Assembly (NCBI GenBank): GCA_963514005.1
Contig: OY740807.1
Location: forward strand, 31,000,001-31,064,000
Source: Raja brachyura
Taxonomy: Eukaryota
Reading direction: 5' to 3'
DNA length: 64,000 nucleotides
Numbering within the stretch: position 1 is the first letter of the stretch; each line of letters begins with the position of its first letter. The notes under the pieces are model-generated. The model was not told the DNA's origin and made no database searches. It was given only the letters and a program-made list of their open reading frames with translations. Both the position numbers and the translations under genes were made by a program. Positions 1,070-64,000 of the stretch are shown here, in pieces.

Positions 1070-1195
1070 AAGACACAGGTACTGGAGCACCTCAGTAATT
1101 CAGTCTGAAGAAGGGTCCCGACCCAAAACATCACCTATCCATGTTCTCCAGAGATGCTGCCTGACCCGCTGAGTTACTCCAGCACTTTGTGTACC
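1070..1195. mobile_element. PLE pseudo-LTR-derived fragment (inverted + direct) with hammerhead-like core
   Basis: cagtctgaagaagggtcccgacccaaaacatcacc followed by agatgctgcctgacccgctgagttactccagc. Confidence 0.75.
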
Positions 1196-2222
1196 ATTGT
1201 TTCTATGAATCATCGTCGCTACAGAGCTCGCCTTGTGTTTCTAGCAAACTGTCAGCGTGGAAGGACAAAGATGCACGTGGTCTTATCCGATGCAACGTCA
1301 AACCAACCGGTCTTCACTGCGCCCCATAACTGTTACCTAAGCCGACCATATGGTATTATCGGTACAGGCCTGGCATTATTCACCAGCCACGTCAGCCAGC
1401 TCCCAACTGCACCGCCAAATAACTCACGGCGAGAAATATAAAGAGACAAGTGTCAGAAAACTTTTTTTTTTTTAAACTGTAAAGTAGTCCCAAGTGTTTG
1501 CCTTCAGGATAGAAGGACTTGAGTTTCTGAGAGGACAGTAGTAAATCAGTGAACTCCACAGCCAACCCCATGCATTAGAACGTTCATTAATATAATCCTA
1601 AGGGTGCTGAAACTGCCTTTGCTGCAAGAATTTTTGTTTTTTCTGGCGACTGATCGCCTGGGTGCTGCCAGCTACTATCAAAATGAAACAGAGACGTGAT
1701 AAATATTGGAAACAGTGTGGGATTTTAAGCCACGACCAAACTGCGATAAATCTGGAAGCAGCGATATTTCTCCAGCAAGGATTAATGATAACTCCACCCC
1801 TCGCGTTTAGTGAAAAGTGCTTCAGTCAAGGTTCCAGGAAAAACATTCTCTCACAGCCAACTCATTCTCAAAGGCAAGTACCAAATAAATCAGCTCTGGA
1901 ATAGGTGGGTAAAACGGGTTTCCTGAATGTTCGCCGCTAATCTGGGCTTCAAAGCAGCCACGTCAGTGAACCGACCTGGGTCATGAAGTGTATGAACAAT
2001 CAGAGCAGTGATGATTTAATTAGTGTTTACACTTCCACCGCTGCTGATCTTGATTCACATTGGTTTCTTTCACACACAAAAAATGCCTCCACAGTACTCA
2101 TGGAGAAGTCAAATGCACTTTGATAAATCCTTCTGCAGAACGTGGCTCTGCATCAATGGCTTGCCCTTTCAACTCGCACTCCTTATATCCATTTCCAACC
2201 TCCGCCTTGAATTGAAACTTGC

Positions 2223-2415
2223 AAGTCTGAAGAAAGGTCTCAACCCGAAATGTCACCTATTCCTTTTCTCCAGAGATGCTGCCTGTCCCGCCGAGTTACT
2301 CCAGCAGGGTTACACAAAAAGCTGGAGAAACTCAGCGGGTGCAGCAGCATCTAAGGAGCGAAGGAGATAGGCGACGTTTCGGGTCGAGACCCTCCTCAAC
2401 GAGTTACTCCAGCAT
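2223..2415. mobile_element. PLE pseudo-LTR fragments: a + copy with an inserted - copy of a second subfamily
   Basis: + copy 2223-2305; - copy 2307-2395 nearly identical to 23223-23313; gagttactccagca duplicated on both sides of the insert. Confidence 0.75.
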
Positions 2416-2649
2416 GTTGCGCCTCTCTTTGAATCTCTCTTTGCATGGCTGCACTCCAGCATTCCCAACATTGATGCTCATACCTTCAGACCCACAACTC
2501 TCACTTTTGTTACAGCAATTGCTGAAGGTAAGTTGTCGGGAGTGGGGGGGGGGGGGGAGAAAGGGGAAGAGGGAGAGGTTTCCAACAGACAGAGAACCTT
2601 CCCCCCCCTCCCCCAGGATGGAATTAAACAATACAAGAGTGATTAGGTA

Positions 2650-2775
2650 TTGGTGAGAGGGTGAACGTTTAATGGAGATGTGCGGGGCAAGTTTTTATTT
2701 ACACAGTGAAGTGGGGGCTGGGACACATTGCCAGGGGTGGTGGTGGAGGCCAATGCAATAGCGGCATTAACATGG
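2650..2775 (+). mobile_element. HER1/CR1-like LINE fragment
   Basis: gtttaatggagatgtgcggggcaagttttt...ttgccaggggtggtggtggaggc is similar to 7880-7970. Confidence 0.6.
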
Positions 2776-3029
2776 GCGCATGGAATCTGGCCTAAATTTG
2801 ACAATGTCTCAAATGCATTCAGTGTTGGTCTCCTTGGGATGTCCCGGTCCACTGTGAAGAGTTCTCACACACATCTTGTTCAGAAACCAATTGCTCCAAA
2901 GGTGGTTAATGCATTTCACAACAGGCCACATCTTAAGCCTTGTCTTAACTGACTGACCTGGCCAGTGAAATTCCTCCTATGTTGCAAAACACACTTGGCG
3001 AATAAAACCAGATTCTGATTCTGAACTTG

Positions 3030-3170
3030 TACTTTGATCAGTACGGGCGTCAGGGGTTATGGGGAGAAGGCAGGAGAATGGGGTTGAGAGGGAAAGATAG
3101 ATCAGCCATGACTGAATGGTGGTATAGACTTGATGGGGCGAATGGCCTAATTGTGCTCCTGTAACATGAA
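3030..3170 (+). mobile_element. CR1 3' terminal fragment
   Basis: ggggagaaggcaggagaatggggttgag...atcagccatga.tgaatgg...gaatggcctaatt..gctcct. Confidence 0.85.
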
Positions 3171-3529
3171 GTTCTGAACCTCAGTTACAACTTTACGATG
3201 CAAGTGCTCTCTTCTTGCAACTAACCCCAAAAGCTGGCCTTTCTCACAAATAGTCAATTAAAATAATTTACTCACATAACACGGACACAAATAAAAGTCT
3301 CCAAATTAGAACACACTCAAAGGGCAACCAGTTTCACACTTGCCCCAGCTATATTTAGATTAGTCATCTGTTAAGAGACATTTGATTTCACAAAATAAAC
3401 TAGAAACTCCCAATGGATGCAACATCAGTGAAATTTAAAACACTTTCACTACACACCGGTAATCAAAGAGACCAAATGTGCCGTACTTTCATCAGCTTTT
3501 ATTTTGGGCCGCATGAAACAGTAAAGTCT

Positions 3530-3785
3530 TAGAACATCAGAAAATAGAAGGATGAGCAGGCTGGTCAGCTCCTGAAGCTCGATGCACCATTCCATGTGAT
3601 CATAGCTAGTATGTCTCACTCCTTCTGTGCCACCTCTGCATAGCCCCTCAGCTCTCTAATCTCTCCAAACCAAATCTGCTTCCTCCTTCGTCTCATCGCC
3701 CCCCCCCCCCCCCCCCCCCCATCAATTGTCTACTATCGACAACCTTCAGGGATACAGAGTTCCATAGATTCACCACCCTCCGCAC
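3530..3785 (-). mobile_element. Degenerate CR1 3' fragment containing a poly-C tract
   Basis: ttagaacatcagaaaatagaag...agagttccatagattcaccaccctc matches the reverse complement of the CR1 end; C-run at 3698-3720. Confidence 0.55.
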
Positions 3786-3825
3786 AAATGCCAAAGTGAC
3801 ATTTAACCCGATGTTTCAGAAGCGC

Positions 3826-4078
3826 TGATTGAGGTATGGATATGGCTCAAGGTACCGCAGATCTCTCTGTTGCTTTTCTTCAGACCAGCAGGGTAGGTTT
3901 TGGACAACCAACTAAAGGGAGATAACATCGCATCATGCAACCTCGCACAAAAGAGTGGCACATCTAACCTTGCAGCGCTACTTCAGTGTTGCACTGAAGT
4001 GTTAACATGGGCTTTGTGTCGTGCAAAACTGACACCACATCCTTCTGGCTGAAGCTGTGAGGCTTCTCTCACTTAGCC
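3826..4078 (-). mobile_element. Ancient Deu-domain SINE relic (SacSINE/AmnSINE1-like)
   Basis: tgcagcgctacttcagtgttgcactgaagtgtt and ccttctggctgaag...ctcacttagcc resemble the reverse complement of the Deu domain plus tRNA head, recalled from family knowledge. Confidence 0.5.
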
Positions 4079-5229
4079 TTAAGTCCACACTAAATGTGTC
4101 ACCTAATAAGTTATTTCGACCACCTAGATGTCAAAATGGAGCCAAGTCTTGAGGTAAGCTCATGCCCAAGCCCATACATCACAGAGACAGAGCTTAATAA
4201 TGACCCGTGCTGCGAATGCAAATTGATTTTCTCTCACCTAGCTTGAACTTTATCAATTCTCTCTCCTCCCCTGCCACCAATTAGTGATGTTTCATAACAA
4301 ACGACACACTTCCCATACAAACTAAGCAACTGGACGTTTTCCATGAGCACTTATCTTCAATATATGGTCGGTTTCTGGTTTTTTTTTCCAGTGTTAGTGA
4401 CAGTAGATTTGCTGGTTGCTAAAAATCAGAGGTAAAAGTCTATCAAGGTATATTGGCTTCTATTGCCAACATTGTTAGTTAATGCTTGCAAGGAAATCAT
4501 TTCATAGTTTTCAAGATGTAATTAACATAAAAGCATGGTCAGGTAGCAGGAGAGATCTGACTCAGATGTCTTGAAAGCTGTCACTTCAACCTGTGAGCAT
4601 TCACAATGGAATGCATTATTTCTATGTATTTGTTACAACAGAATTCACTGGCATTGTAACAGCCATTGCTGTCCAATGCAGATGAAGTAGTTTGAGACAT
4701 TTCCGAATTTCTGAGACTAATGAGGCATAAAATAAATGTATGCCTGTATATGTGATTTTTAAAAAAAATATTTGCAAGTATATACATTTCGGATATACAA
4801 AGGGACCAGAGAAGGGAGGACAATGTAGCTGCAATACCACAATGGAGGATTGTCTTCAAGTGATCGAACAGTCTTTCTAAACGTGGCGATTCTCTCATCC
4901 ATCATTCATTCACATTAAGCCACTTTTGGCTCAAATTAGTCCATATTCTTTTCAAAGAAAATTATCAGCATAATAACCTGGCAAGATAAATAGACTTTTG
5001 ACTCACTGGCCTAACCACATCCAACATAATTTGTCCCACTTATCATTTCTGTGCAGCTCTGCAGGCTCCTGTCGTCTATGAAGGAAGAGATGGTGTGTTC
5101 TCACCCTCATAACATGCTCCCATTCCATTCACATACCTCAGTCAATATTCAACAAACTGAACAGCTAATGCTTGACACTGTCCTTTTGTGCAACGTAATC
5201 AAACTGAGTTTCTCTTTCCTGTTCGAAGC

Positions 5230-5750
5230 AAGTAAGCAGATGCAGACTTACACCGAAGATGGACACAGAATGCTGGAGTAACTCAGCGGGACAGGCAGCA
5301 TCGCTGGAGAGAAGGAATGGGTGACGTTTCGGGTCGTAGCCCTTCTTCAGACTGAGAGTCAGGGAAGAGGGAGACACAGAGATATTGAAGGGAAAGGTGG
5401 GAAGCACAGATCAAAATGGACGATTATCAGCAAAATGTAGAATGGTGCATTGTTAGCTGAGGGGAAGGTGACATCGAGGCATGCAATCAGTGCAGGGCCT
5501 GTCTGACTTGGGCGTCATTTGCGCGTCATGCAGGTGGAGCGCGGAGATTTTGTGAATCACAAACTCCTGGGGCGCCGCGCGCAACCGCTCGTCACTGCCT
5601 ACGCCACCAGGTCTCACCACGCACAGTGCCGCGTAAATGATGTTGCGTTGTGCATCGTGACGGGTAAATTATGTCACGTAAATGACACGCAAATAACGCC
5701 CAAGTGGGACAGGCCTTTAACACTTAGTCAGGAGGAGTAGTGGGAGAACC
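5230..5750 (-). mobile_element. PLE 3' end with hammerhead-like motif, interrupted by a Harbinger MITE
   Basis: gggtgacgtttcgggtcgtagcccttcttcagactgagagtcagggaagaggg; same flank architecture as 9478-10440 and 46842-46985. Confidence 0.75.
5494..5717. mobile_element. PIF/Harbinger-like MITE
   Basis: About 36-bp imperfect TIRs agggcctgtctgacttgggcgtcatttgcg / cgcaaataacgcccaagtgggacaggcctt; right flank TAA, left flank TGC. Confidence 0.8.
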
Positions 5751-6032
5751 TGTCACGTCAGTACACTCGTGGATGAGAAGGTTTAGGCCTACAAAATGGA
5801 GCCAACCTAGACTCCTGCCCCACCCTTGACCAGGCGTGCTATTGACAGGCTAGGCTCAAGTTAGATTAATTAATTCCCTAAATACTTCCAACTCCCTGAC
5901 CTCTCTCCTCAGGTGCTTTGTCAATACCTTTGGCCATTCTTCTGTTACCACTCTTGTGATGTGTATCCACTTCTGCACAATTAATTCGCAGTGAATCCCT
6001 AAGGGTTTCTTGTTGAACGTTCACAGTGCCCA

Positions 6033-6100
6033 AAACCCCTTCTTCAGAACCCCTTCTGATCTAGTCGAAACCCTTCTTCAGAACCCTGTTCTGATCTAGT
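6033..6100. repeat. Tandem duplication of a ~34-bp unit
   Basis: aaaccc(c)ttcttcagaaccc(c/tg)ttctgatctagt occurs twice. Confidence 0.85.
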
Positions 6101-7384
6101 GACGTGCTGGTACACAGATCCTCCTGGCACCAATGCTTCCTTCATTAAATATTAGTCAAAACACAACGTGGAAAGCACATCCCTTATTTTTACTTTAAAC
6201 AGAAATGCAACCCTTTCAAATTATTTCCCCTGGATAACTGGAGAAGGTGAATGATCACAAATTCAAACTTCCAATTAGCTCCTCACATGATGTTACTATC
6301 AGAATCTACTCCGCTCCACAGTCTACCTGCATTACAACATTATATTTTCATAAATGACTATGTACCAGAATTATGGAATGCGTATAGAAAAGGCGCATAA
6401 TAGATACAATCATGTGCTAAGTCATTGTTATGGTTCTCCAGGGTCCTTTGAAACTACAACTGAAAAAGCTTTTTAAGTTGATGATATAAATCAGATGTCA
6501 TGACGTTTTGTGTCATCACATTCGGACTGCCAAATTTGCACTTACGGGAAGCACTCCAGCGCAAAGCTGGCTTTGTGTCGGTCTCTCTAATTCCCATCAG
6601 CATCAAAGCCAGATCAGTCTGTGGCATTTGGGTGAAAATCTGATTTTGATTAAAAAAAACAATATTGTGACAGCATCAACGTTTTGATCAGGGGGCTTTA
6701 GACGTCGAGCAGATAGTAATAATCGCAAAACAAAACAGCGCTCAGATAATCACCCAGTGAACGTGTGTTGAGGCCTGAAGGTCCCATTGATTGTAAATGC
6801 TGAGAACTTCAGATCAAGAGCAATAATGACATCCGAAGGAGTACGACAAGTGCAGTGCGAACAATCTTTCTCCACTGCACCTTCTCGTTAGCTCGGAGAG
6901 AAAGGACCCTCAATTTAAATTCAGGCAGTTTTTGTTAATCAGTGGAATCACACTTCACACTGATGGAAAAAAATATCGTCAAGTGAAACAGATTCTGCTT
7001 TCTCAAATGATTTACTGCTCTTCTCTCACAAGGGAATTTAAGATTCAGATCTCAAATGTTGCAATAAAAAGGACTATAAACCAGAAGGTCCAAACAAACA
7101 CGACATCAATTTTGCAGAAAGAAGCGATTTGGATGAGCTAATGGTGAGAAAAAAAATGGGCACGGTTCTTATTGTTTTGGTCAAGGTATTTTTAAGATGC
7201 ATTAAAAACACAGATGCCTCACAACTCCTGATGTGAGCACATCTGGATACCACCAATGGATCAACTTTTTATGGGCACACTGCAGAAGGATGTTTTAATA
7301 GATGGAAAATCTAACCTCATCAGCCTTTATATCTGTAGGTTTGTCTTCAACCTTTCATTTTAGAAGGCGGATTTTCGTATGAGA

Positions 7385-7625
7385 TACAAAGAACTGCAGA
7401 TGCTGGTTAATCCACAAAAGGACCGAGTGGTGGAGTAACTCTGCCGGTCAGGCAGCCTTTCTGGAGAACAGGGATATGAGACGTATTCTCCAGAGATGCT
7501 GCCCGATCTGCTGAGCTACTCCAGTACTTTGTGTCCTTTCTTATTATGTTGTCTGAAATATTTAACCTTGTTTCACTCTCCACAGATGCTGCCTTATTTG
7601 CCGAGTCTTTCCAGCATTTTTAAAT
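7385..7625. mobile_element. PLE pseudo-LTR-derived fold-back fragments
   Basis: gaactgcagatgctgg...tggagtaactc followed by ctccagagatgctgcc...gagctactccag, plus an older copy at 7575-7620. Confidence 0.7.
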
Positions 7626-7649
7626 ATGTTTTCATATTTACAACTTTTA

Positions 7650-8140
7650 AAGTACAGAGGAGATTTACTAGAATGTTGCCTGGGTTCCAGCAACTAAGTT
7701 ACAGAGAAAAGTTGAACAAGTTAGGTCTTTATTCTTTGGAGCGCAGAAGGTTAAGGGGGGACTTGATTGAGGTCTTTAAAATGATGAAAGGGATAGACAG
7801 AGTTGACGTGGATAAGCTTTTCCCATTGAGGGTAGGGAAGATTCAAACAAGAGGGCATGACATGAGAATTAAGGGACAGAAGTTTAGGGGTAACATGAAG
7901 GGGAACTTCTTTACTCAGATAGTGGTGGCTGTGTGGAATGATCTTCCAGCAGAAGTGGTGGAGGCAGGATCGATTTTAACATTTAAAAGTAAAGTGGATA
8001 GGTATATGGACGGGAAGGGAATGGAGGGGTATGGTCTGAGTGCAGGTAGATGGGACTAGGGGAAAATAAATGGTCGGCACGGACTGGAAGGGCCGAGAGG
8101 GCCTGTTTCCGTGCTGTAATTGTTATATGGTTATATGGTA
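7650..8140 (+). mobile_element. HER1/CR1-type LINE 3' end (C-terminal ORF2 fragment, 3' UTR and microsatellite tail)
   Basis: Translates KVQRRFTRMLPG..LSYREKLNKLGLYSLERRRLRGDLIEVFK..TRGH..NFFTQ.VVAVWNDLP; tail gggcctgtttccgtgctgtaa(ttatatgg)n. Confidence 0.92.
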
Positions 8141-8459
8141 AAGTATTTTGTTTTTCAGTCAATTATTTTATCTGCTTTTTTTAATTAGGTAACTCAAAGC
8201 AGTTACAAACGTGAGATTTTAATGTGTGTTAAAATAGAATGGGTTGTGATTGCTGAATGGAGATACTGGGCAAAAGATCACCAAGGAGAAACTCAGAACT
8301 CAAGAGTTTAATTGTCATATGTACCATCAAAGGTATAATGAAATTCATATTTGCTGCAGTTTTATATTCTATTATCCATTAATAATCACGAATATTATGT
8401 CAATAATTAGACCATAATAAAGCAAACTGAAGTACATGGAGCAACCAAAACAATGTTTT

Positions 8460-8762
8460 GGGCGGCCATGTGGCGCAGCAGTAGAGTTGCTGCCTTACAG
8501 CGCTTGCAGTGCCAGAGACCCGGGTTCGATCCCCACTACGGGTGTTGTCTGTACGGGGTTTTTACGTTCTCCCCGTGACCGCGTGGGTTTTCCCAGAAAT
8601 CTTTGGTTTCCTCCCACACTCCAAAGACGTACAGGTTTGTAGGTTCGTTCACTTGGCGTATGTGTAAATTGTCCCCAGTGTGCGTAGGATAGTGTTAATG
8701 TGTGTGGATCGCTGGTCGGTGCAGATTCCCACTCTGTATCCCTAAACTAAACTAAACTAACT
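8460..8762 (+). mobile_element. HE1/V-SINE-like SINE
   Basis: A/B boxes, central domain, (taaac)n tail. Confidence 0.9.
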
Positions 8763-8796
8763 GTTCATTGGCGATCCTAGTTGCTGAGATACGGTT

Positions 8797-9200
8797 CTAG
8801 TTAATGTTGTACAAGATGGTTACTGGGAAGATGCTTTTCTGAAATCTGGAGGTCATCATTTTCAGCCTCTGTATCTTTTTACTGATGTTAGCGGGAGATG
8901 AGAGGATGGCCAGGGAGCTGTTGATGTATCTTTGATGATATTTGCAGCCTTTTTGAGGCAGAACCTTCTGTAGATCCCTTTGATGGTTGGGGAGGTCCAT
9001 GCTCATGATGGTCCTGCCACCGTCTTCCACTTTCTGCAGCCTCCTTTGTTCCTGGGATTTCGAGCCACCGAAATAGACCGTGCTGCAACCAGTCAGTATG
9101 CTCTGGGCTGTACAGGTTCTACGGATAATTTGGTGACACACCAAGTCTCCTCCACCTTCCCTGGAAGTCGAGTTGTCACGCGGTCTTTACGATTGCGTCG
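8797..9200 (-). mobile_element. Rex1/Babar-type LINE C-terminal fragment
   Basis: Translates QSILTGCSTVYFG..QEQRRLQKV...TSRFQKSIFP, the typical Rex1 C-terminal pattern; frameshifted. Confidence 0.75.
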
Positions 9201-9477
9201 ATTTGGTGGGTCCAGGTCAGATTTTAAGAGATATGCAGGTGTTCCCCAAAGGCCTTCTCTTTGGAGAAGAACCGCGGCATGTTTTTACCAAACATAGTTC
9301 AAATATTACCAAGAACCTGAAGCTGTGCAAAGCTTCAATGAGATTCAAAGTGATGTGACTTGAAAGGATTCCATGCTGTTCACTACTAATTTTACCTCTC
9401 CACTGCCAAGTGTTAACCAGTTGAACGAGCTGTGTATATCAATGGAAAAGCAAAGCCGACTGCACACTGATCTGAAC

Positions 9478-10440
9478 AGATAGACACAAAATGCTGGAGT
9501 AGCTCAGTGGGACAGGCAGCATCTCTGGATAAACGGAATGGCTGATATTTCAGGCTGGGGCCCTTCTTCAGACAGAGCATCAGGGGGGAGGATCACAGAG
9601 ATAAGGAAGTGTAAAGGGCCTGTCCCACCAGCATCCGACTGCATGCAATGAGCGCGATCAAACTAGAAGCGGGGGCCGCGTGGAGGTCGGGTGATCCCCT
9701 GTACAGGGCCGTTCCCACCAGCATGCACCTGCATGCGGCAAGCGTGACCAAACCGGCAGCGAGGGCCGCGCGGAGGTCAGGTGAGTGGCGCAACGTGGCG
9801 CAAAGTGAGGCAAACTTGGAGCGAAGTCTTAAGGTAAGTTTGACAGGACAGAGAGGGGCACACAAAGAGGGGCACAGAGGCACACACACAGAGGGCCACG
9901 GAGCCACACACACAGAGGGTCATGGAGGCACCTACAGATAGGTTCACGGAGGCACGATGTCGAGGCGGTGTATAATGCGTCGAGGCGACTGCGAGCCGAC
10001 AAGCCGTTGCCGTGCAGAATTTTTGAACATAGTCAGTTTTTCGGAGCCCCGCGCGATGTCGGGACGAACTCCGCACAATTCTGCACGGCTCCGGCGATCG
10101 ACGTGGGACCGGCCCCGCGACGCCGGACGGCTCAAGCGACCACGTTAGGTCGCGCTCATCGCATGGAGTTGCATACTTGTAGGACAGGCCCTTAAGAGAT
10201 CAAAAGAGATGCTGATCAAGGAAAATGTCGAATAGACCTTTGGCGGCTCGGAGAAGCTGACAACAACACAAACAGAGATACAGTGCAATCAGGAGGACAG
10301 TCAGACTGGTCGGAGAACTGGAGAGAGGGAGGGATGGTGGGAGAGGGAAAGCAAGGCTTACTTGAAGATAGAGAAGTCAATATTCATAACTCGAGGATAT
10401 TCATACCGCTGGGGTGCAAGCTGCCCAAGCGAAATATGAC
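9478..10440 (-). mobile_element. PLE 3' end (GIY-YIG C-terminus remnant plus pLTR) interrupted by a Harbinger element
   Basis: Reverse complement of 10400-10438 encodes IFRLGSLHPSGMN; pLTR motif at 9478-9575. Confidence 0.8.
9615..10192. mobile_element. PIF/Harbinger-like non-autonomous element
   Basis: TIR agggcctgtcccac / gtaggacaggccct (13 of 14 match); TAA target duplication at 9612-9614 and 10193-10195. Confidence 0.88.
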
Positions 10441-10513
10441 CTCAACAGCGCAGGTCAGGTAGAGATGGGAGAATTGTGGAAAAGCAGACTAAACCGGAAC
10501 AGGAACGGTTTAC

Positions 10514-13011: not shown

Positions 13012-13041
13012 TGAGAGAGAGAGAGGGAGAGAGAGAGAGAG
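13012..13041. repeat. (GA)n microsatellite
   Basis: Directly visible. Confidence 0.9.
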
Positions 13042-51510: not shown

Positions 51511-51543
51511 ACTAAGACATCCTTAATTTTGCACTCGGGTCCT

Positions 51544-54496: not shown

Positions 54497-55316
54497 GTTT
54501 ATACCATTGGGTTGTACGATTCTGCATTCTGCAGTGGAGGATGCCCGGGACCGAAAGGTCAGTGTGGGAATGGGAAGGGGAGTTAACATGGTCGGCAACT
54601 GGGAGTTTCCGTAGGCCGAGGCAGACTGAGCGTAAGTCTTCAACAAAACGGTCGCGTCAACAATGACACGTTCAATGTAACTACTTTAATAATGAGAATT
54701 CCAAGATTATTATTCAGGCGACTTAACTAAATTCAATCCCAAGTTCTAGACCAGAGAGGATAATTTCAAAATTGAGTGTCATCATTAAGGTAGTAAAAAT
54801 GTCTCGTCGGAGATGAGAAATTCTTAATGTGGTCCTCTTAAAGAACATAGAAGTCTGTATTAAACAGACAGCTCAGTGATATAAACGGTGATAAAAATAA
54901 CGCATAAAGAACCATATTTCAGACACGGTGCAGTCAGACATTGCCTTGGAAAAGAAATTAATTTAAAACATGAATTAAAGGGAATAGCAAATATCCCCCT
55001 CTGGCTAAAACGTATTAATTACTAAGCTGGCTGAGAGAGTTTGACAATTAACCGTAGCACATGGCAAGAGTCCCAATGGCAACCGTCAGTTCTCCAACTG
55101 CCATCGGCCGCCAAGGGCAGATTGATTGATTGATGACCTTTCTTGCAAGAAGAAGGCAGCAAGGCTGGAGAAGACTTTCTAAAAAGAACTCTCAAACCGA
55201 ACTAGGGCAATGAAGCAAACTTCAAGGTCAAACCAACAGGTCGAACCTTCAATATATGTCTGGGAGACACAGTAACTGGCTTACAATCGTGACTGTTTTA
55301 ATGCAATGCAGCGCTT

Positions 55317-55600
55317 TATAGAGTCATAGAGTGATACAGTGTGGAAACAGGCCCTTCGGCCCAACCTACCCACACTGGCCAACAAGTCCCAGCCACACTA
55401 GTCCCACCTGCCTGTGTTTGGTCCACATCCCTCCAAACTTGTCCTATCCATGCACCTGTCTAACTGTTTCTTAAAGGTTGGGATAGTCCCAGCCTCAACT
55501 TCCTCCCAGCCTACTCAACCCCTGCCAATAGCTCAGACCCTCTAGTCCTGGCAACATCCTTGTAAATCTTCTCTGAACCCTTTCAAGCTTGACAATATCC
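55317..55600 (-). mobile_element. HER1-type LINE 3' end with internal deletion
   Basis: Tail atagagtcatagag..ggaaacaggcccttcggccc joined to the KLERVQRRFTRMLPGLEGLSY region. Confidence 0.8.
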
Positions 55601-55621
55601 CGTGATCGTTGAGATATTGGC

Positions 55622-56118
55622 CTTAATAGTGAAAGGCCGGAATAGAGTGAATGGGGAGAAGATGTCTCCACTAGTGGGGGAGTCCAGGACCAGGGGGCCA
55701 TACCCTCAGAATAAAAGCATGTACCTTCAGAAAGGAGATGAGGTGGAATTTCTTTAGAGGTTGGGAAATTTGTGGAATTCATTGCCACCGAAGGCTGTGG
55801 AGGCAAAGTCACTGGATATTTTTAAGGCAGAGATAGTCTGAAGAAGGGTCTCGACCCAAAACATCACCCATTCCTTCTCTCCAGAGATGCTGCCTGTCCC
55901 GCTGAGTTACTCAAGCTTTTTGTGTCTATATTTGGTTTACAACCAGCATCTGCAGTTCCTTCTTGTATATAGATAGATTCTTGATTAGTACGGGTGTCAG
56001 GGGTTGTGGGGAGAAGGCAGGGGACTGGGTTTGAGAGGGAAAAATAGATCAGCCATGATTGAAAGGCGGAGTAGACTTGGGCAGAATGGCCTAATTCTGC
56101 TCCTAGAACTTATGAACT
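55622..56118 (+). mobile_element. CR1 3' fragment split by a PLE pLTR (55836-55970)
   Basis: agatag duplicated around the insert, which begins tctgaagaagggtctcgaccc. Confidence 0.85.
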
Positions 56119-56299
56119 ACATAAATGTACAGTTTCAGATCAGGCATTAACAACCGTAACTGGGACATGACTTCAAAGGACCGTCCCAGAATGAAAGTCT
56201 GCCTGCAACAGAAAAGCTAATGTAGAACTAAGATTGAGATTCCAGTTTTGATTAACATTTGATTAACTAAGATTTTTAAATGCATTGGAATTAATTGCT

Positions 56300-56492
56300 A
56301 CGGACGTCTGTGGAGGACAAGACATTGGGTATTTTTAAAGCAGAGAGCGATAGGTTCTTGATTAGAAAGGGCATCAAAGGTTCCTGGAAGAAGGCAGAAG
56401 AATGGGGTTGGGGGAAGAATAGATCAGCCATGATTGAATAGCGGAGTAGACTGGGTGGGCTGCCTGGCCTAATTCTATTCCTCCATCTTATA
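56300..56492 (+). mobile_element. CR1 3' fragment
   Basis: atagatcagccatgattgaatagcggagtagac. Confidence 0.8.
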
Positions 56493-56493
56493 A

Positions 56494-56790
56494 GGGGCGG
56501 CACGGTGGCGCAGCAGTAGAGTTGCTGCCTTACAGCGCCGGAGACCCGGGTTCGATCCCAACTATGAGTGCTGTCTGTACGGAGTTCGCACGTTCCCCCC
56601 CCCCCCCGTGACCTGCGTGGGTTTTTTCCGAGATCTTCTTCCCACACTCCAAAGACGCACGGATTTGTAGGTTAATTGGCTTGGTAAATGTAAAAATTGA
56701 CCCCAGTGTGTGTAGGATAGTGTTAATGTGCGGGGATCGCTGGTCGGTGCGGGCCGAAGGGCCTGTGTCTCTAAACAAAATTAAACTAAA
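56494..56790 (+). mobile_element. HE1-like SINE with poly-C expansion
   Basis: Intact A/B boxes; C-run at 56595-56607. Confidence 0.9.
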
Positions 56791-57987
56791 CCTCTCTCAA
56801 GTTCCTAATTTGAAATATTTTGGACACAGTGATATAAAAAGAATAAAAAAGGTAATTTTAGAAAATGGGGATGAGCACCATAATAGTGATGAATGTTACC
56901 GAATTAGATCTACTGGAAACATTGTAAGGCAGAATCAAGGTTAACACAAACTGTGATCCTTTCTCCTCCACTCATGCATTTTAAAATGAGAATGTCACAA
57001 TATTTCATACAACTTTGAATGGAAATCACAGATATAATGGCAGTCGAGTATAAACATCTTTAAAGAAGAAAACAGCACGCAAGAAAATATTCCTCTCGTT
57101 TGCAAGTTTAAATACACTCGGCATCTGACACCAAAGCACATCACATACACTGTTGGTTCATGCACCTGCCCTTGAAGCAGCTATTCAGATAATGTCTTCC
57201 CCAAAAGACCCCTTTCAGGAAGGGATTTCTTCGATGCTTAGTCGAGTGAATGCAAATTCCCCAGAACAAAACAGTCCCTGCGCATTTATTAATCTCCTCA
57301 CCCCCTCCCCTCACTATCCCTTCCCAATAAAAATACCAAGTGCCCAAGACACCGACACCTCCATTAACATTTATCTCTTGTCACTCGTGCTGGCAACACA
57401 AATTAACATATGGCAACGAGAGAACACTCCAGAGGAGAGAAAATTGGGTTATTTTCATGGAAATGAGGGCAGAGGGAAATAGACCAAAGAGCTATTTGTG
57501 TTGTGTATCCTGGCAATGTTTTTAGATATATAAACAAAAAAGCTGCTGTTGATTTAAGGCTCCACAAAGAAACCTTAATCCTATCACAGGAACAAAATCA
57601 CCTCAAAAAGTTGCAAGCAGATAAAGAACCTCTGTCAAGCTTGGCCATTCACAACTAAATGGATGGCACAAATCAAACTGTACGAGTTAACAAAGATGAG
57701 AATGTGGGAAATACATTCAAATCCAGAAAGAAAGCCCGGGCAAGAGTAAAGGGCCTTTTGTTAATCAATCATCCTTTGCTTCGACAACCAAGTGAGCCTT
57801 TCTCCCTGGTTACCGGCAGTGAATTAGGAATGTTGATTCACTGGTCGCCCTCTTTCATGCTGGATGCAAACCAAAATGGGATACTCAAAAAGCTAAAAGC
57901 TTTTCGCTGCAATTAGCAACTTAAAAAGTGCCACTTTGCATGCGGCTCAGGGTCAGGGGGCCTGTACAGGAGACAACCAGGGAGAGG

Positions 57988-58160
57988 GCGGACACAAAAT
58001 GGTGGAGTAATGGAGGGGGGGGGGGGGGGGGGTTAGGCAGCTCTCTGGAGAGAAGGAACGGGTGACGTTACGAGTCCAGACCCAACCTAAAACTTCTCTC
58101 CAGAGATGCTACCTGTCCCCCCCACTGAGTTTCTCCAGCATTTTGTCTCTCATCTTCAGT
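57988..58160. mobile_element. PLE pLTR fold-back with poly-G
   Basis: gacacaaaatggtggagtaa(G)n...ctccagagatgctacc...tttctccagcattttgtc. Confidence 0.7.
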
Positions 58161-58589
58161 GGAGACGGTGGGATGCGTCCTACCTTTGCTCGTGGTCGTA
58201 TTGAAAAGTTTCTCCGAAGTAGCATCCGAAACCTGGAGCAGAACAGAGAGAAAAAAAAGGGAAAAATTAAGATGGTGATCTTTTTTAAAAACATTGAAGC
58301 ATTTACCAGTTTAGAGAAAAACGTAAGAATATTTTAATGCAGTTACTTTAACTCTCCACAAGATAGAGCCAGAGCATTTGTTTAAAAACTCTATTTTGCA
58401 GACCATTTATTTCAAGAACGTGCACTTAAAACCAATGTCCAAACATGGAGCGTAAAAATATAATGTTATATTTTGGTTTAACTAATGACTCAGCTGCTTC
58501 TGAGTCTGTTTATCAGCCTTCTGAACAGTCCTTCCATAAGTTTGCACGCTCTCCAATTCTCATTATGGACATTGCATTCTGTCTCTGGG

Positions 58590-58745
58590 ACTATTACGCT
58601 ACAATGCTGAGATTTATCCTCTACACTCTGTACCTTTCCTTCACCCTACCTGTTGTAATGGAGTTTGCCTTGATTGTATTTACTTGATTGCATAGCATAA
58701 AGCCTTTCACTGCAGCTCGGTACGCGTTACAAGAAACCCAAACCT
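58590..58745 (+). mobile_element. Rex1-like 3' UTR fragment
   Basis: ctacaatgctgaga...cactctgta...ctttcactgcagctcggtac. Confidence 0.55.
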
Positions 58746-58873
58746 AAAACACTTCCAACCCTTTTTCTTTCCCTGAACAGCTCCACGGACATGCAGCATG
58801 TAGGACACATTGCAGACCCAAAGATGCAAACTCCACTGTTTTTTTTAACCTCGTGGAATGCACCTTATACTAG

Positions 58874-59030
58874 TGGGTGGCACGGTGGCGCAGCGATAGA
58901 GGTGCTGCCTCACAGCGCCAGAGACCTGGGTACAATCCTGACTACGGGTGCTTGCCTGTACGGAGTTTGTGTGTTCTCCCCCTGACCTGCGTGGGTTTTC
59001 TCCAGGATCATCGGTTTCCTCCCGCACAAA
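58874..59030 (+). mobile_element. HE1-like SINE 5' half
   Basis: gggtggcacggtggcgcagcg...ggtttcctcccgcac. Confidence 0.85.
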
Positions 59031-59164
59031 GGTATTAAGAGAGGGTTACTGTTGTGTCTGTTTATATTAAATAAACAATGTTTATGCTAACTTAAACCTT
59101 AGCGTACATCATTCCTCACATCCTTATCTCCTGTGTTAACTGTGCACTATCGCAGAATAACAGC

Positions 59165-59470
59165 ATAGCATGACGGCGCAGCGGTAGAGTTGCTGCCTTA
59201 CAGCGCCAGTGACCCGGGTTTGATCCTGGCTGTACAGAGCTTGTACTTTCTCCTCGTGACCTGCGTGGGTTTTCTCTGATAACTTTGGTTTCCTCCCACA
59301 CTCCAAAGACGTTCAGGTTTGTAGGTGAATTGGCTTGGTATAAGTGTAAAATTGCCCCCAGCATGTGTAGGATAGCGTTAATGTGCGGGGATCGCTGGTC
59401 AGCGCGGACTCGGTTGGCCGAAGGGGCTGTTTATGCGCTGTATCTCCAAATTAAACTAGAAAAACTAAAC
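59165..59470 (+). mobile_element. HE1-like SINE
   Basis: Head, central domain and tail. Confidence 0.88.
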
Positions 59471-59814
59471 TTCCTTTGTGGTGAATGTGAATTATTTTTA
59501 TTAAAACCTCAAGCTGTCATCAACTGGCCCCATTTTATGCATGTAATTCACAAGGCACACTGCAACATCTGCTTGTAGACTATGTAATATGTTCATAGTT
59601 TCATCACCCACCCACGCTTTCCTCCTCACTATAAACTTAACTTGGTGACTACTTGCATCCACTGTACTAACATTTCCACATAAACTCAGATTACTCATTT
59701 CCAACAGTAAAGCTTGATTCAAAGGAGAAAAGTTTCTTGTGAAATTACAATTGCAGTAAACTCCTTGATGGTCTCTCATCTCTCACTGCATAACTGTTCA
59801 ATATCTGTTAAGCG

Positions 59815-60000
59815 AAAATACCAACTGCAGGGGAAACTCAGTGGGTCAGGCAGCGTCCGTGCAGAGAACTAGACGGATGGTATTTGCGGTTATGACACTC
59901 ACTTTATCAGCCTGATCTCCACCGATTCTGCCTGACCTGACCCGCTGAGTTCCTCCAGCACTTTATTTTTTGCTCGCGATTGCGGCATCTGCAGTGTCTA
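59815..60000. mobile_element. Older PLE pLTR fold-back
   Basis: aactcagtgggtcaggcag ... ctgacccgctgagttcctccagc. Confidence 0.6.
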
Positions 60001-60007
60001 CTTAAGC

Positions 60008-60314
60008 ATAGAAACATAGAAAATAGGTGCAGGAGGAGGCCATTCGAACCTTCGAACCAGCACCGCCATTCATTGTGATATTGGCTGATCGTCCCCAATC
60101 AATAAACCGTGCCTGCCTTCTCCCCATATCCCTTGATTCCACTAGCCCCTAGAGCTCTATCTAACTCTGTCTTAAATCCATCCAGTGATTTGGCCTCCAC
60201 TTCCCTCTGTGGCAGGGAATTCCATAAATTCACAACTCTGGGTGAAAACATTTTTTCTCATTTCCGTCTTAAATGACCTCCCCTTTATTCTAAGACTGTG
60301 GCCCCTGGTTCTGG
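60008..60314 (-). mobile_element. Young CR1 3' fragment
   Basis: catagaaacatagaaaataggtgcagg; same subfamily as 43431-43877. Confidence 0.9.
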
Positions 60315-60776
60315 GGCAGGGTCTACAGTAATGCCTGCAGCTGCTACACAAGTGCCACATATCTCTGCACTATTAAGTACATGCTTGCCTCAAATGGGGG
60401 CACAATGGAGTGACGGCCAGTATGTGGGTCCCTTGTGCATTAGAGAGTGTCTGTACGGGAGATCAGACTTTATAATGTGCAATTCATCTTGACATCTCGT
60501 CAGATAACGACATTTCTTCCGACGTTGCTTCATTGCCAACGGATTTTCACTCCCGCCGGAGACATCTTAGGCAACGTGGTGGGACTTGAGGATTATTTGT
60601 TATCTCCCAGCGTCCACCCTGCTGGCATACATTTCATTGGGCACGACTTCTGAGCCCCTAGGACATTTTGGAGCTCTTCTCTCGCCTGCAGCTCCTCTCC
60701 TCAATGTTCGCCAAAATACACATTGCTGTCGTCTGACTTCTCTAGGGACCACAGTTAAGTCAAGGCACCCTAACGT

Positions 60777-60905
60777 GGGTGGCACTGTGGCGCAGCCTTA
60801 CAGGGCCAGAGACCCGGGTCCGACCCTGACTATGGGTGCTTGTCTGTCCAGAGTTTGTATGTTCTCCCTGTGACGTGTGTGTGTGTACGTGTGTGTGTGT
60901 GTGCG

Positions 60906-60945
<40 letters not shown>

Positions 60946-61105
60946 TTCTTTGGGATCGTCGGTTTCTTCCCACACTCCAAAGACGTACAGGTTTGTAGGT
61001 TAATTGGCTTGGAATAATTGTAAATCATCCCTAGTGTGTGTAGGAGTGTGCTGGGAACGCTGGTTGGTGGGCCGAAGGGCCTGTTTCTGTGATGTATCCC
61101 TAAAC
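60777..61105 (+). mobile_element. HE1-like SINE with internal (GT)n expansion (60875-60940)
   Basis: The consensus gtgacctgcgtgggttttc is replaced by a (GT)n run. Confidence 0.85.
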
Positions 61106-61349
61106 CCTGTTGCTTTTCCCAAAGGCTTTTTGAACCACGTCACTATTTTCTGAAGGAATCCAAATCAACAGCGAAACGTGACGCTGGTTTTGCATACCAA
61201 AATTAGGCAAAACCAACCTCGTTTCGAGGCACGAGATTCTCAGTAGTCTTGTTATGAGTCAACACTAGAATTTCCCTTTCCCTCCGTCCCAATTACTAAA
61301 GGAGTCATTACATTCATGTGGGCAACTCAACCTTCTGAACCCCAAGCCT

Positions 61350-61580
61350 TAGAAACAGAAAGAAAATAGGTGTAGGAGTAGGCCATGCGGCCCTTCGAGC
61401 CAGCACTGCCATTCAATATAATCACCCAAAATCAGTACCCCGTTCCTGTTTTCTCCCCATATCCCTTGATTCCTTTAGCCCCAAGAGCTAAAACCAACTC
61501 TCTCTCGAAAACATCCATTGAATTGGCCTCCACCGCCTACTGTGGCAGAGAATTCCACAGATTCGCAACTCTCTGGGTAA
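61350..61580 (-). mobile_element. CR1 3' fragment
   Basis: aaaataggtgtaggagtaggcc...gaattccacagattcgcaactctctgggt. Confidence 0.85.
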
Positions 61581-62734
61581 ATGACAACTCTCTCTCGCGG
61601 CCAAAGACTGAGGCGGCCTGGCAGGACTGGAAGGAGCAGTGGTGGTGCTTTTGGCTGTGGCCGATTTACTGCCGCTGGCGAGACACACGTTAGCTGCTAA
61701 TTATTTCCCAGTCCCCGCGCAGTCGAAATGGGCGATAAGTTGTCTCTTCGAGCAGTGCGGCGACTGAAGTGGTCTGCTGCTGTTGATCATCCATTATCAG
61801 CAGCTGCCAGGGCACGGCGGCATCAGGCTCTGCGATAAAGCACGAACGAGCTTTATCACAAGGAAATCATCATCCCCTGTGAGGAGACTCTTTCCTCTCA
61901 TTAAATGTAACCTTACCGCTTGAACGCTGCAATCCGTAGCAAGTGACAATGGCATCTCATCTAATTTTCCAACAAGCCAATCCTGACAGCATCCTCGTTT
62001 TCCTTTTTGCTTTCCAAAACACAAGTTAATCTGCCCGTCAGCTTGTCGGTGAAAGAAAATAAACCGTGTCGCCTCATGGGTGAAAAATCGAGGCAGGGAT
62101 CTCAGAAGCCAGACGCAAACTCATGCATTAATTAGTGGCCTCATGATGCCTTAACAGGTAGAATGGCTTCTCAAGGTTAAAGGTAAAGGGATATTAAACC
62201 TACTGTGAATAGTGTCCAATTACATGCACAATTGACGATGATGGCAATCGAAATCCGCGTCCTCTTTTTGAAAGGGAAAAAGAGAAAGCCTCAGACAAGA
62301 GCTATTCACTGATTTACTGACAATACCCAATTTCAGAGCAATCGCTGTCAAATCAAAATGTCACTGGTGTCAATCTGTGCATGTACCAAGTACCAACTCA
62401 ATCCACTTCTCTCAAGTTGGCTCGTGTCAATGCAGCCACCTGTGAATGCAGGGCCACTGTGATGTGAATCATCTATCTCAACTCTAATGTTCTGTCTTTA
62501 CCTGGTGATTCTCCTTCTCCTCTCCTCACTCGTTGCCGATCAATGGGCCAATATGTCCCTGCCTCCCTCTGCATCCTGACCAACTGCGTCAGGCTCAGCT
62601 TTAACCTTTACAAATCCATGAGTGTCAATAGCTTATTCAACTGAGGACTAGGATTCCAATAGTTTTAGGCTCTCGTTAGCGCACTCTAGTGCCATAAACA
62701 GACTTCGTTCCACCAAAGAGTTCATCGTCAGTCA

Positions 62735-62862
62735 TGCCGGCCCTGTTTTGTGCCGGCCTTCTCCGTCTTTCACCCTGAAGAAGGGTTCTGACCCCGAAAC
62801 GTTACCTATTTCTTTTCTCCAGAGACCACCTGAGTTACTCCAGCATATTGTGCCTATCTTCA
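62735..62862 (+). mobile_element. PLE pLTR fragment with hammerhead-like core
   Basis: ccctgaagaagggttctgaccccgaaacgttacc. Confidence 0.7.
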
Positions 62863-63387
62863 TTGTCACTTGAGTACTTTGTGTAAACGGAAGTAGATTG
62901 GACTCGGAATTTGTCGCCATTAGCAACTGCACTAAAGGACCCCAAGCTGCCTTCTAGAGCCAAGAGTCATGTTAATATTCTCTTTTATGAGATGCTGGAC
63001 AGCGAGAGACCACAGGCTGTGTCTCAGATTGGACCTCACAGCTGGACTCTGACTTGAAGAGATTAGCTGATGCAAATCTTATTTATTCATCCTCTTCTCC
63101 GCACCAGGAGGTAGCAGCTCGTCATTTGTTGCAGTGCAAGAAATACGCTCGCTCAAGGCGTTTTCTGTTGAATGTGTGCCTGGGTATAAAATGACTGCTT
63201 GACCCAAACATGACCTGACCCAACCACTGTTATCTTTCCCCAATCTGAGCCTCAAAACATTTAATCCTTTTTCCGTATCTTGCTCCTCATAATCGCAACA
63301 CAATCAGAGCGTGCCATTGATGTAGCCGTCAAGGAAAAGGACTAAAAACAAAAAGAAAGCTAAACAACAGATGTTGGGATGAGTGAG

Positions 63388-63632
63388 ACCGAAGGAATTG
63401 CAGGTGCTGGTTTACAAAATAAAACTGCACAAGTGGTGGAGTGACTTAATATGTCAGGCAGCAGCTCCGGAGGCAATGGACAGGCTCATCGAAACAGACA
63501 AAATAGGTGCGGTAGGCCATTCGGCCAGCAAAGCCATTAAATATGATCATCCTAAACCAGTACCCCGTTCCTGCAGACTCCTCCACAGATGCGGCCTGAC
63601 CCAATCAGTTACTCCACCACTGAGTGTTTTTT
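63388..63632. mobile_element. PLE fold-back with an inserted - CR1 tail fragment
   Basis: - arm 63390-63485; CR1 piece aaataggtgc..ggccattcggcc; + arm 63580-63630. Confidence 0.6.
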
Positions 63633-63882
63633 GACGTTAGCAATATTCCGTGGTTTAAAAACGTGGGCAGCAGTGAACTGAGTCAACAGTGAAAATACAA
63701 CTAACTAGCCACTTGTCTTCTAGTGGACCTTCAACATGTCTCACTACCTTCTTCTAAACTGGTAAAACAACAATAATAACCAGTATGCGTATAATTCCGC
63801 TCCCACTGTATAGAGCACTTTGTGTACCCAGGGAAGCTTTGACATAAAGTTTGGCAGTAAACCATGCAAGACCATTATTAGA

Positions 63883-64000
63883 AAGCACACAAAGTGCTGG
63901 AGTAACTCAGTGGGTCGGGCAGCATCACTAGAGAACATGGTTAGGTGATGTTTCGGGTCAGGGCCCTTTCTCAGACACGACCCGAAACGTCACCTACCCA
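63883..64000. mobile_element. PLE pLTR fold-back, truncated by the window end
   Basis: gctggagtaactcag...tttcgggtcagggccctttctcagac followed by gacccgaaacgtcacc. Confidence 0.75.

Follow-up and report, generated by a model that had tools for sequence, protein, structure and literature searches.

The window, the whole stretch of 64,000 nucleotides analysed here, contains many short repeats headed by a hammerhead-like motif, and the question it raises is what these repeats are and how they were copied. The earlier note had taken them for a SINE-like family headed by a ribozyme. In our reading, to which we give a probability of roughly 0.7, they are pLTR ends of a Neptune-type Penelope-like (PLE) retrotransposon, 5′-truncated, for the most part decayed and each headed by a minimal hammerhead motif, the shortest being likely run-off cDNAs of uncut RNA.

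The motif and its Penelope-like origin

A search for CTGAAGAAGGGT-N4-ACCCGAAACG with up to four substitutions gave 25 matches in the window (15 on the + strand and 10 on the −) and 0 in each of 20 dinucleotide-block shuffles of it, which bears out the claim of more than 20 copies on both strands. The motif heads a repeat of roughly 90–130 nt. A 106-column profile search of the window gave 73 matches at E ≤ 1, of which the 63 at E ≤ 1e-3 are the fragments discussed below (Table 1). In an Rfam scan of the window at E ≤ 1 no hammerhead family model matched; there were four chance-level matches, one pair of them over a fold-back repeat. A metagenome pattern scan gave 0 matches.

All seven example positions quoted earlier hold, the core C lying at 1105, 23570, 30635 and 32364 (+) and at 5350, 13762 and 53448 (−), and AACGTT does start at 30657. 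All seven are present as copies of the motif, but only those at 23570, 30635 and 32364 are intact: G12 is changed to A at 1105 and 53448, the palindrome is lost at 13762 and helix II is 3 bp at 5350.

In the majority sequence the core C3 U4 G5 A6 N7 G8 A9 ... G12 A13 A14 A15.1 ... U16.1 H17 is present. All 12 core positions are intact in 10 of the 37 scored rows; about four of the scored rows are duplicate or misplaced, and a 38th row, with a broken core, lies outside the count. Helix II is 4 bp with G10.1–C11.1 (87.9% of cells paired). The loop variants described for it are present and U–G replaces U–A at pair 4 in 4 of 31 rows, but its covariation is not above shuffles. One extra base (A), nearly invariant, lies between positions 9 and 10.1. 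Helix III is a palindromic ACGU in the majority sequence, worn by CpG decay in many copies. Helix I, given earlier as 2–4 bp, is 2 bp in most copies (77.4% of cells paired), and longer values were due to filler or to a neighbour in inverted orientation; this length is that of the D. virilis variant and falls short of the usual 4–5 bp. The min-HHR class is described by CUGANGA, an extra base at 9/10.1, G10.1–C11.1, GAAA, a palindromic 15.1–16.1, UH and a 2-bp helix I (PMC4209133; here and below the cited papers are drawn on in part). The agreement with this class supports the proposal of minimal type I hammerheads in Penelope-like pLTRs, with a helix III unable to close as a monomer.

The literature has had the motif class, its pLTR position, the dimer model and the high copy numbers since 2014, so that the finding as first stated adds a host lineage. 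The text and supplements of PMC4209133 covered here name no shark or skate host, and no shark or skate report found in a literature search names this repeat family, although the remaining species lists (PMC4209133, bioRxiv) may bear on it. The useful part is the map of 5′ ends: a dense family records where the RNA template began and whether it was cut.

Table 1 Motif copies, paired insertions and endonuclease remnants in the window
Feature	Positions	Strand	Remarks
All 73 profile matches	170..63996	both	63 at E ≤ 1e-3 cover 4788 bases, 7.5% of non-N sequence
Head-to-head pair with first quoted example	1073..1197	.	G12 to A, CA loop
pLTR copy, pyrimidine-rich UTR upstream	5236..5355	−	core and palindrome intact, helix II 3 bp
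pLTR copy	9478..9577	−	core intact, helix II 4 bp with one two-sided change (C–G), AUAU palindrome, helix I 1 bp
pLTR copy, subfamily C	13667..13767	−	core intact, palindrome lost (CA loop)
C-terminal GIY-YIG remnant with stop codon	13855..13935	−	~95 nt upstream of 13762 head
Head-to-head pair, subfamily B	23480..23662	.	arms 96% alike; tail on left arm only
Intact minimal hammerhead, subfamily B	23568..23599	+	core 23570–23597, predicted cut after 23597; right arm of head-to-head pair
Head-to-head pair, subfamily A	23748..23912	.	arms 97% alike; + arm starts at −2
Intact minimal hammerhead, subfamily C	30633..30664	+	U–G in helix II, GUU triplet, predicted cut after 30662; starts at A of AGT (−2)
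C-terminal GIY-YIG endonuclease remnant, broken	32019..32177	+	upstream of 32364 head
Intact minimal hammerhead	32362..32393	+	predicted cut after 32391; copy has GIY-YIG remnant, 3′ UTR, pLTR body and tail
Fold-back pair	37600..37761	.	54-nt arms (37626–37679, 37708–37761) around exactly 28-nt core; + arm begins at predicted cut site (+29)
pLTR copy with hammerhead motif	47292..47389	−	A9 mutated, no tail
C-terminal GIY-YIG remnant, frameshifted	47559..47757	−	followed by 3′ UTR and 47382 head
pLTR copy with tail	53321..53453	−	G12 to A; reference for read mapping
GIY-YIG remnant	54528..54653	−	inserted repeats between remnant and 53448 head
Near-consensus short unit, −2 to tail	55835..55960	+	inside LINE-like remnant; G12 to A
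Head-to-head pair at window end	63880..64000	.	core broken

That copies lie downstream of GIY-YIG remnants was confirmed, with remnants on the same strand ~95–190 nt upstream of the heads at 13762, 32364 and 47382. A fourth lies ~1.1 kb upstream of the 53448 head with other repeats between, so that four remnants in the window are linked to motif heads, each on the strand of its head. A Pfam search with the window remnants, which are too short, gave nothing meaningful. With the remnant at 47559–47744 as query, GIY-YIG-bearing fragments were matched; these relatives themselves score weakly against GIY-YIG, under the curated threshold. The window remnant and fragment P0018 share 63% identity over 41 aa, and via P0018 53 longer proteins (734–1126 aa) were reached, the majority having a recorded RT domain. 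RT is fused to the endonuclease in P0018 and in longer relatives, and the Cx2-5CxxC linker, ascribed to Neptune (PMC8557442), is present in P0018, P0034, P0049 and 49 of the 53. As neither an RT remnant nor an RT–EN linker was found in the window, the clade was assigned from the relatives, and the label Neptune stands for their linker motif, which Nematis has too. A search with P0005, a gene model for a receptor to which a PLE tail is attached, returned receptors.

About 10 heads run on upstream into a PLE 3′ UTR, which is 73–89% pyrimidine in 9 of the 10 UTR-bearing copies; most of these UTRs end in CAG and their sequences otherwise differ. The 26 adjacent pairs of matches within 60 nt comprise 18 head-to-head, 4 tail-to-tail and 4 same-direction. 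Of 17 pairs examined, 8 have a tail on a single arm and none has tails on both. A one-sided tail and an inverted partner have been described for PLE insertions (PMC8557442). The 3′ ends of the fragments are bimodal, just as reverse transcription of the Anolis carolinensis element Poseidon (PAc) starts at two sites (PMC11167929).

5′ ends and the RNA template

With ends mapped by a single consensus from −4 and a head-seeded profile, which could make copies from a subfamily not covered by them seem truncated, 18 of the 63 fragments have 5′ ends at −5..0 without UTR, 35 end over +1..+67 and 10 continue upstream; the pile-up at −5..0 has a binomial p of about 1e-7. About 10 junctions adjoin an inverted partner and are unaffected by the doubt about truncation. 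The starts at −5..0 are mostly at the A of an initiator-like TCAGT, and an exact stop at this A (−2) is seen in 8 of the 23 non-UTR heads among those listed. No excess of ends was found at the predicted cut site, with 4 of the 63 fragments at +26..+31 against 3.1 expected. A cluster of ends near +37..+44 was set aside as a likely single-consensus alignment artefact. As many copies start before the motif and not at the cut site, they were likely copied from uncut RNA starting there.

The start of the element RNA is likely two to three bases upstream of the core. By analogy with anole Poseidon, the element protein may nick both target strands and prime reverse transcription within the RNA, with two putative priming sites, at +82–100 and about +125, bounding the tail. 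Long copies, which have UTR and a GIY-YIG remnant, would come from priming in the 3′ pLTR. Initiated in the 5′ pLTR, synthesis would run off at the RNA start after about 90–130 nt, giving the SINE-looking units, and two such cDNAs could join head to head. If the start at −2 and copying from uncut RNA are true, the proposed excision of unit-length elements from long precursors would not fit this pLTR family.

In one raw RNA run, from an organism that is possibly not the window's species, both strands were equally covered and no pile-up of starts or ends was seen among the ends listed, in a loose-end table blurred by two small insertions in the reference copy.

The ribozyme and rival readings

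Most window copies of the ribozyme motif are dead: core, helix II and ACGU palindrome are all kept in just 3 of the 37 scored rows. The earlier note had proposed covariation in helix II and conservation of the core above its flanks as tests, and both gave null results in the window copies. With subfamily-diagnostic columns removed, the core change rate was 20/287 (7.0%) against 91/1227 (7.4%) for the non-diagnostic flank (p = 0.90). Among 31 copies there was one two-sided change per helix, with no excess over 500 shuffles, 147, 88 and 148 of which reached the observed values; this test is low in power, as the copies are closely related and decaying neutrally. As covariation is absent and core conservation is not raised, selection on catalysis is not evident in the window. 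Neutral decay of dead copies predicts both results, and the motif in the parent element is therefore not refuted.

Nor is the hammerhead, as monomer or dimer, the predicted fold under nearest-neighbour energy models, which omit tertiary contacts and protein. The predicted hammerhead fold has −2.8 to −4.5 kcal/mol against an MFE of −6.0 to −12.3, and the predicted dimer −5.9 to −7.1 against −9.4 to −10.2 kcal/mol for two free helix II hairpins; the ACGU duplex contributes just −1.7 kcal/mol, and most of the core is paired within the other predicted folds. As the competing hairpin over the core is no more stable than in shuffles (z from −0.8 to 1.3), no selected switch is claimed. AACGUU as a better dimer helix was rejected, since it would pair A14 and H17, which must remain unpaired in a hammerhead. 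In the parent element the ribozyme would cut only weakly after GUC or GUU, as a dimer through ACGU and probably assisted by the element protein; the competing hairpin masks the core, and helix I has 2 bp.

It is possible, though improbable, that the motif is catalytically dead even in the active element and kept by overlap with a promoter or protein-binding signal. The 2-bp helix I, the weak ACGU duplex and the otherwise paired core would fit, as would the lack of excess ends at +29, the Xenopus dimers, 8 of 9 of which did not cleave when tested (bioRxiv 10.64898/2026.07.22.740005), and the PAc hammerhead mutants, which left insertion in vitro unaffected (PMC11167929). The PAc hammerhead does cut, however, albeit only with protein and with uncut RNA as the dominant substrate (PMC11167929). 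One fold-back arm begins exactly at +29, and the changes seen preserve the fold (U–A to U–G, C17 to U17). Of the 10 non-CpG core columns none has a subfamily-diagnostic change, compared with 14 of 57 columns in the flank (one-sided p about 0.08, computed by hand).

Equally doubtful, when all its parts are taken jointly, is the idea that the hammerhead forms the RNA's first 31 nt and at the same time an internal Pol II core promoter, with strong-stop copies spreading and cleavage silencing. The putative RNA start region matches what we take to be the initiator and DPE consensus motifs: the initiator A would be at −2 of the core and a DPE-like GTCA/GTCG would lie across the cut site. Strong-stop-like copies, made when reverse transcription is primed at the 5′-pLTR tail, would then keep promoter, ribozyme and priming site, and could multiply as a non-autonomous unit that has a ribozyme head and is transcribed by Pol II. 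In this view the occasional cleavage would remove the cap and silence the RNA, not release it. The same 5′ spot also reads as a splice acceptor (pyrimidine tract and CAG).

Less likely again is an independent SINE-like family of ~130 nt with a dimer ribozyme head and its own internal promoter, mobilised in trans by the PLE protein. The sharp 5′ boundary and defined tail do make a fixed-size unit, no subfamily B copy in the window extends upstream into UTR, and head-to-tail joints of the 133-nt unit occur in two related DNA runs, in 41 contigs of one and 26 of the other. The putative frame from the ATG at +50 has TAA in 2 of the 18 translated copies with the subfamily A tail in frame (5301, 20434), which hints that coding was lost. 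Nevertheless, the proposal of a separate family is unsupported: the insertions have PLE hallmarks (inverted partner, one-sided tail), their head-to-head geometry is that of ordinary PLE insertions, about 10 heads continue into PLE 3′ UTRs, four are linked to GIY-YIG remnants, and 35 of the 63 fragments end inside the unit. No short-copy-only subfamily was shown, the numbers being too small. A tRNA-, 7SL- or 5S-derived Pol III head was looked for and no tRNA or Rfam match was found over the unit. The sole tRNA-like call in the window sits in a different repeat.

Least probable is a spliceosomal 3′ splice site at the 5′ boundary (pyrimidine tract, CAG, TCTGAAGA), with splicing rebuilding helix I and activating the ribozyme, and RT stalling or jumping at the junction. 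The pyrimidine-rich UTRs, mostly CAG-ended although their sequences differ, would suit it, as would D. virilis Penelope, whose intron reaches as far as the 5′ edge of helix I (PMC4209133) and whose transcripts begin 46 bp ahead of that intron (PMC2377424). Truncated copies, however, retain AG (ends at −2) and have no exon sequence in common upstream, and no GT–AG skip into the site is among the 15 joints listed (322 others lie outside the list; ~170 nt upstream were covered).

Comparison with known systems

The closest published match to the motif itself is the min-HHR of Cervera and De la Pena 2014 (PMC4209133), which likewise has type I topology, the full core, the pLTR position, the extra base at 9/10.1, G10.1–C11.1 and a palindromic 15.2–16.2. 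It too occurs as thousands of dispersed single copies from truncated PLEs and is presumed to be a low-activity dimer. The D. virilis variant and the window motif agree in the 2-nt palindromic insert and in the 2-bp helix I, whereas helix II is 4 bp here and 6–8 in the examples described there (PMC4209133).

The animal non-LTR retrozymes of Li, Clavereau and Pollet (bioRxiv 10.64898/2026.07.22.740005) share pLTR-derived, hammerhead-bearing short units; one chondrichthyan genome is among their reported sources. Retrozyme units stand in tandem, consecutive ones keeping the motif intact, whereas the window copies are dispersed or inverted. No such tandem array was found in the window, and no two intact same-strand copies are neighbours there; each of the close same-strand pairs 30456/30635, 23570/23826 and 20335/20385 has one broken motif.

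With the Neptune-clade EN+ PLEs of Craig et al. 2021 (PMC8557442) the repeats share a C-terminal GIY-YIG, strong 5′ truncation, an inverted 5′ copy and a 30–40 bp tail on one end, and Cx2-5CxxC is found in the relatives here. The window is without a full-length or ORF-intact copy, and the parts of PMC8557442 used here do not mention a hammerhead 5′-end pile-up. The role of the hammerhead in endonuclease-bearing PLEs is still called unclear there.

For the copying process the nearest parallel is PAc (Frangieh et al. 2024, PMC11167929). PAc is of the Poseidon clade with its ORF starting from stem II, whereas the first shared ATG here is at +50. In PAc, too, the hammerhead lies about 100 nt upstream of two tail-bounding RT starts, both strands are nicked and extended, and uncut RNA is used, with no reads ending at the cut site.

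Anatomy and decay of the hammerhead motif

The minimal hammerhead motif (head) that opens each unit, a pLTR repeat of about 90–130 nt, is real and was correctly spotted in the earlier note. With up to four substitutions allowed it was matched 25 times, on both strands, against 0 matches in each of 20 shuffles, and all the motif coordinates quoted there were confirmed. A profile of the head and 70 downstream bases gave 73 matches in the window at E ≤ 1, of which 63 reached E ≤ 1e-3; these cover 4788 bases, 7.5% of the non-N window. The unit family is very abundant in related sequencing runs: it occurs in 70,599 contigs of one DNA-like run and in 74,245 of another, which are contig counts and not copy numbers, and in 10,737 reads among the 7.3 million of an RNA run.

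The motif consists of CUGAAGA, one extra A, a 4-bp helix II opened by G10.1-C11.1, GAAA, a CG insert, UC or UU, and a 2-bp helix I. The C of CTGAAGA is numbered +1, placing the predicted cut between +28 and +29. Hammerheads of this PLE (Penelope-like element) class are already known. In the accessible part of PMC4209133 minimal hammerheads are characterised by the extra base and the G-C pair as well as by the palindrome; dimers are proposed there and low activity is reported. The suggestion that the palindromic ACGU would make the motif act as a dimer thus equals the published model. In an energy model that omits tertiary contacts and protein, two separate helix II hairpins came out more stable than the dimer fold, and the ACGU duplex was predicted at -1.7 kcal/mol. 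The hammerhead fold gave -2.8 to -4.5 kcal/mol against an MFE of -6.0 to -12.3, again in a model without tertiary contacts or protein. In the predicted fold the purine-rich core would pair with a downstream pyrimidine run, and this competing hairpin was no stronger than in shuffles. No neighbouring intact same-strand copies were found in the window.

Most window copies are dead. All 12 core positions are kept in 10 of 37 scored rows. G12 and the CG insert lie in CpGs, which are decaying, and 7 of 30 aligned copies have A in place of G12. The earlier note had named a lack of helix II covariation, and a core no more conserved than its flanks, as refuting conditions. Over 31 heads covariation did not exceed that of shuffles: the observed pairing, the two-sided pairs and the covariation score were reached by 147, 88 and 148 of 500 shuffles, respectively. 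Counting cells that differ from the majority base, 20 of 287 core cells (non-CpG positions) differed and 91 of 1227 flank cells in columns without subfamily differences (p=0.90), so the core was no better conserved than these flank columns. With all flank columns 221 of 1625 differed (p=0.001), but both the subfamily changes and the seeding on the head inflate this figure. None of the 10 core positions is a subfamily-diagnostic column, whereas 14 of the 57 flank columns are (p about 0.08, calculated by hand). Neutral decay after insertion predicts these conservation and covariation results, and any evidence that the parent elements were under constraint is weak at most. That the motif is a catalytically dead relic is unlikely, and would be compatible with the rest of the explanation. 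The preferred reading is that cleavage in the parent element would be weak, dimer- or protein-dependent.

A short AACAATGGGCC-like motif, kept upstream of several heads across otherwise dissimilar UTRs, is complementary to the bases directly after the cut site. It could be a distant helix I extension or a promoter element.

Coordinates of features in the window
Feature	Position	Strand	Observation
Intact heads	23570, 30635, 32364	+	core, helix II and ACGU kept (3/37 scored rows)
Head	9571	-	AUAU palindrome; helix I 1 bp
Head	5350	-	helix II 3 bp
Heads with AACAATGGGCC-like motif	32364	+	motif ~100-120 nt upstream
Heads with AACAATGGGCC-like motif	53448, 47382, 5350	-	motif ~100-120 nt upstream
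ATG at +50	30685, 23620	+	examples
ATG at +50	5301	-	example
GIY-YIG remnant	47559-47744		62 aa; 50 relatives at E ≤ 0.001 in protein search
GIY-YIG remnant	10396-10443		
Between this remnant and head 9571	9610-9955		90-nt two-copy repeat; 24-nt four-copy minisatellite
Nest	22500-23950		at least 12 fragments of the family in either orientation; A and B subfamily copies inserted next to one another
Inverted arm	37600-37761		makes helix I a 54-bp stem enclosing a bare core; G12 changed to A
Arm	37708		begins exactly at +29
Unit	55835-55960		in LINE remnant; possible 4-bp duplication
Repeat with tRNA-like head	743-933, 13950-14110, 31446-31615		~25 more places
ARAGORN tRNA-like call	31446-31518		in one copy of the repeat with the tRNA-like head
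LINE remnants	7439-8059, 26218-26556, 38155-38616, 55495-55821		reading-frame 3' ends, presumably CR1/L2-type

Identity of the parent element

The repeats belong to a PLE. Four heads are preceded, on their own strand, by the broken C-terminus of a GIY-YIG endonuclease, three at ~95-190 nt and one at ~1.1 kb with other repeats between. The named proteins nearest to the endonuclease remnant suggest that the host is likely a cartilaginous fish, probably a skate. P0018, a database relative with 63% identity to the 47559-47744 remnant over 41 aa, carries RT motifs, a Cx4CxxC linker and a GIY-YIG end in one protein. Through it 53 longer proteins were reached; an RT domain is recorded for most of them, and 49 have a Cx2-5CxxC linker. 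This linker is ascribed to Neptune and Nematis in the accessible text of PMC8557442, and vertebrates have only Neptune and Poseidon according to the portion seen of bioRxiv 10.64898/2026.07.22.740005. The parent element is therefore likely a Neptune PLE, its clade being taken from the relatives' linker; no trace of the RT-EN linker is left in the window. Three proteins (P0005, P0010 and P0002) are public gene models, from cartilaginous fishes or unnamed sources, that end in or contain the element's GIY-YIG tail, as in a neuromedin-U receptor model. They are likely annotation artefacts or exonisation.

The earlier note had described the hammerhead units as SINE-like. What looks like the true SINE of the window is not this unit but another dense repeat, one whose head is tRNA-like. 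Pfam gave no match for the two LINE-like remnants tested. It is improbable that the hammerhead units are an independent short element. In the preferred reading the short units would come from run-off at the 5' pLTR of the PLE. The nest at 22500-23950 suggests insertion into earlier copies.

Where copies begin

The 5' ends of 63 fragments fall at -5 to 0 in 18 cases (binomial p about 1e-7) and at +1 to +67 in 35, and 10 continue upstream into pyrimidine-rich UTRs. There was no excess at the cut site (4 at +26 to +31 against 3.1 expected). Among 23 listed heads without a UTR, 8 stop exactly at -2, the A of TCAGT. Inverted partners adjoin about ten of these junctions, which makes the boundary at those sites independent of knowing the UTR. 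That this spot is a splice acceptor is improbable. The start of arm 37708 can be explained by fold-back through 2-nt helix I complementarity. In the related sequencing runs the loose-end consensus reaches the same AGT edge and is then mixed. The RNA run covered both strands equally, and neither starts nor ends piled up in it, which is the pattern that passive transcription would give. In literature searches, which covered supplements in part and did not extend to Lunse et al. 2017, no paper was seen to name this family or to describe ends piling up at the hammerhead.

The preferred reading is that the element RNA would start at -2. TCAGT there presumably matches the Pol II initiator consensus and, counting from its A, G at +24 and GTCA/GTCG at +29 to +32 are taken to be DPE-like, as a lead only. 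The Penelope element of D. virilis has an internal Inr/DPE promoter, according to the part of PMC2377424 available.

An ATG at +50 of the unit opens a shared frame (MLLHPLSFSS or MLPDPLSYSS) whose register is held across a 3-nt subfamily indel. The frame is open through the tail, the extra 3' piece, in subfamily C, whereas some copies of subfamily A have a TAA at codon 18. This ATG may be an ORF start or a uORF.

Insertion geometry and known systems

There are 26 pairs of adjacent matches no more than 60 nt apart. In 18 of them the copies stand head-to-head, their 3' ends pointing outward; 4 pairs are tail-to-tail, and in the other 4 both copies run in the same direction. The 3' ends lie mostly at +80 to +100, or reach at least +115. 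In 8 of the 17 head-to-head pairs examined a single arm carries the tail, and in none do both arms carry it; the 18th pair runs off the window. Head-to-tail joints of the 133-nt unit were seen in 41 and 26 contigs of two related DNA-like runs. Reverse transcription would be primed at the tail of either pLTR, and two cDNAs would be joined head to head.

The motif shares with the D. virilis variant both its 2-nt palindromic insert and its 2-bp helix I, as described in the portion seen of PMC4209133. PLE insertions carry an inverted pLTR and a 30-40 bp tail on one side in the accessible text of PMC8557442, and both are present in the window pairs. The anole Poseidon protein, in the available part of PMC11167929, nicks the two strands, extends each of them, and begins reverse transcription from a pair of internal sites that bound the tail; the pair geometry and the two classes of 3' end fit this two-strand nicking with two start sites.
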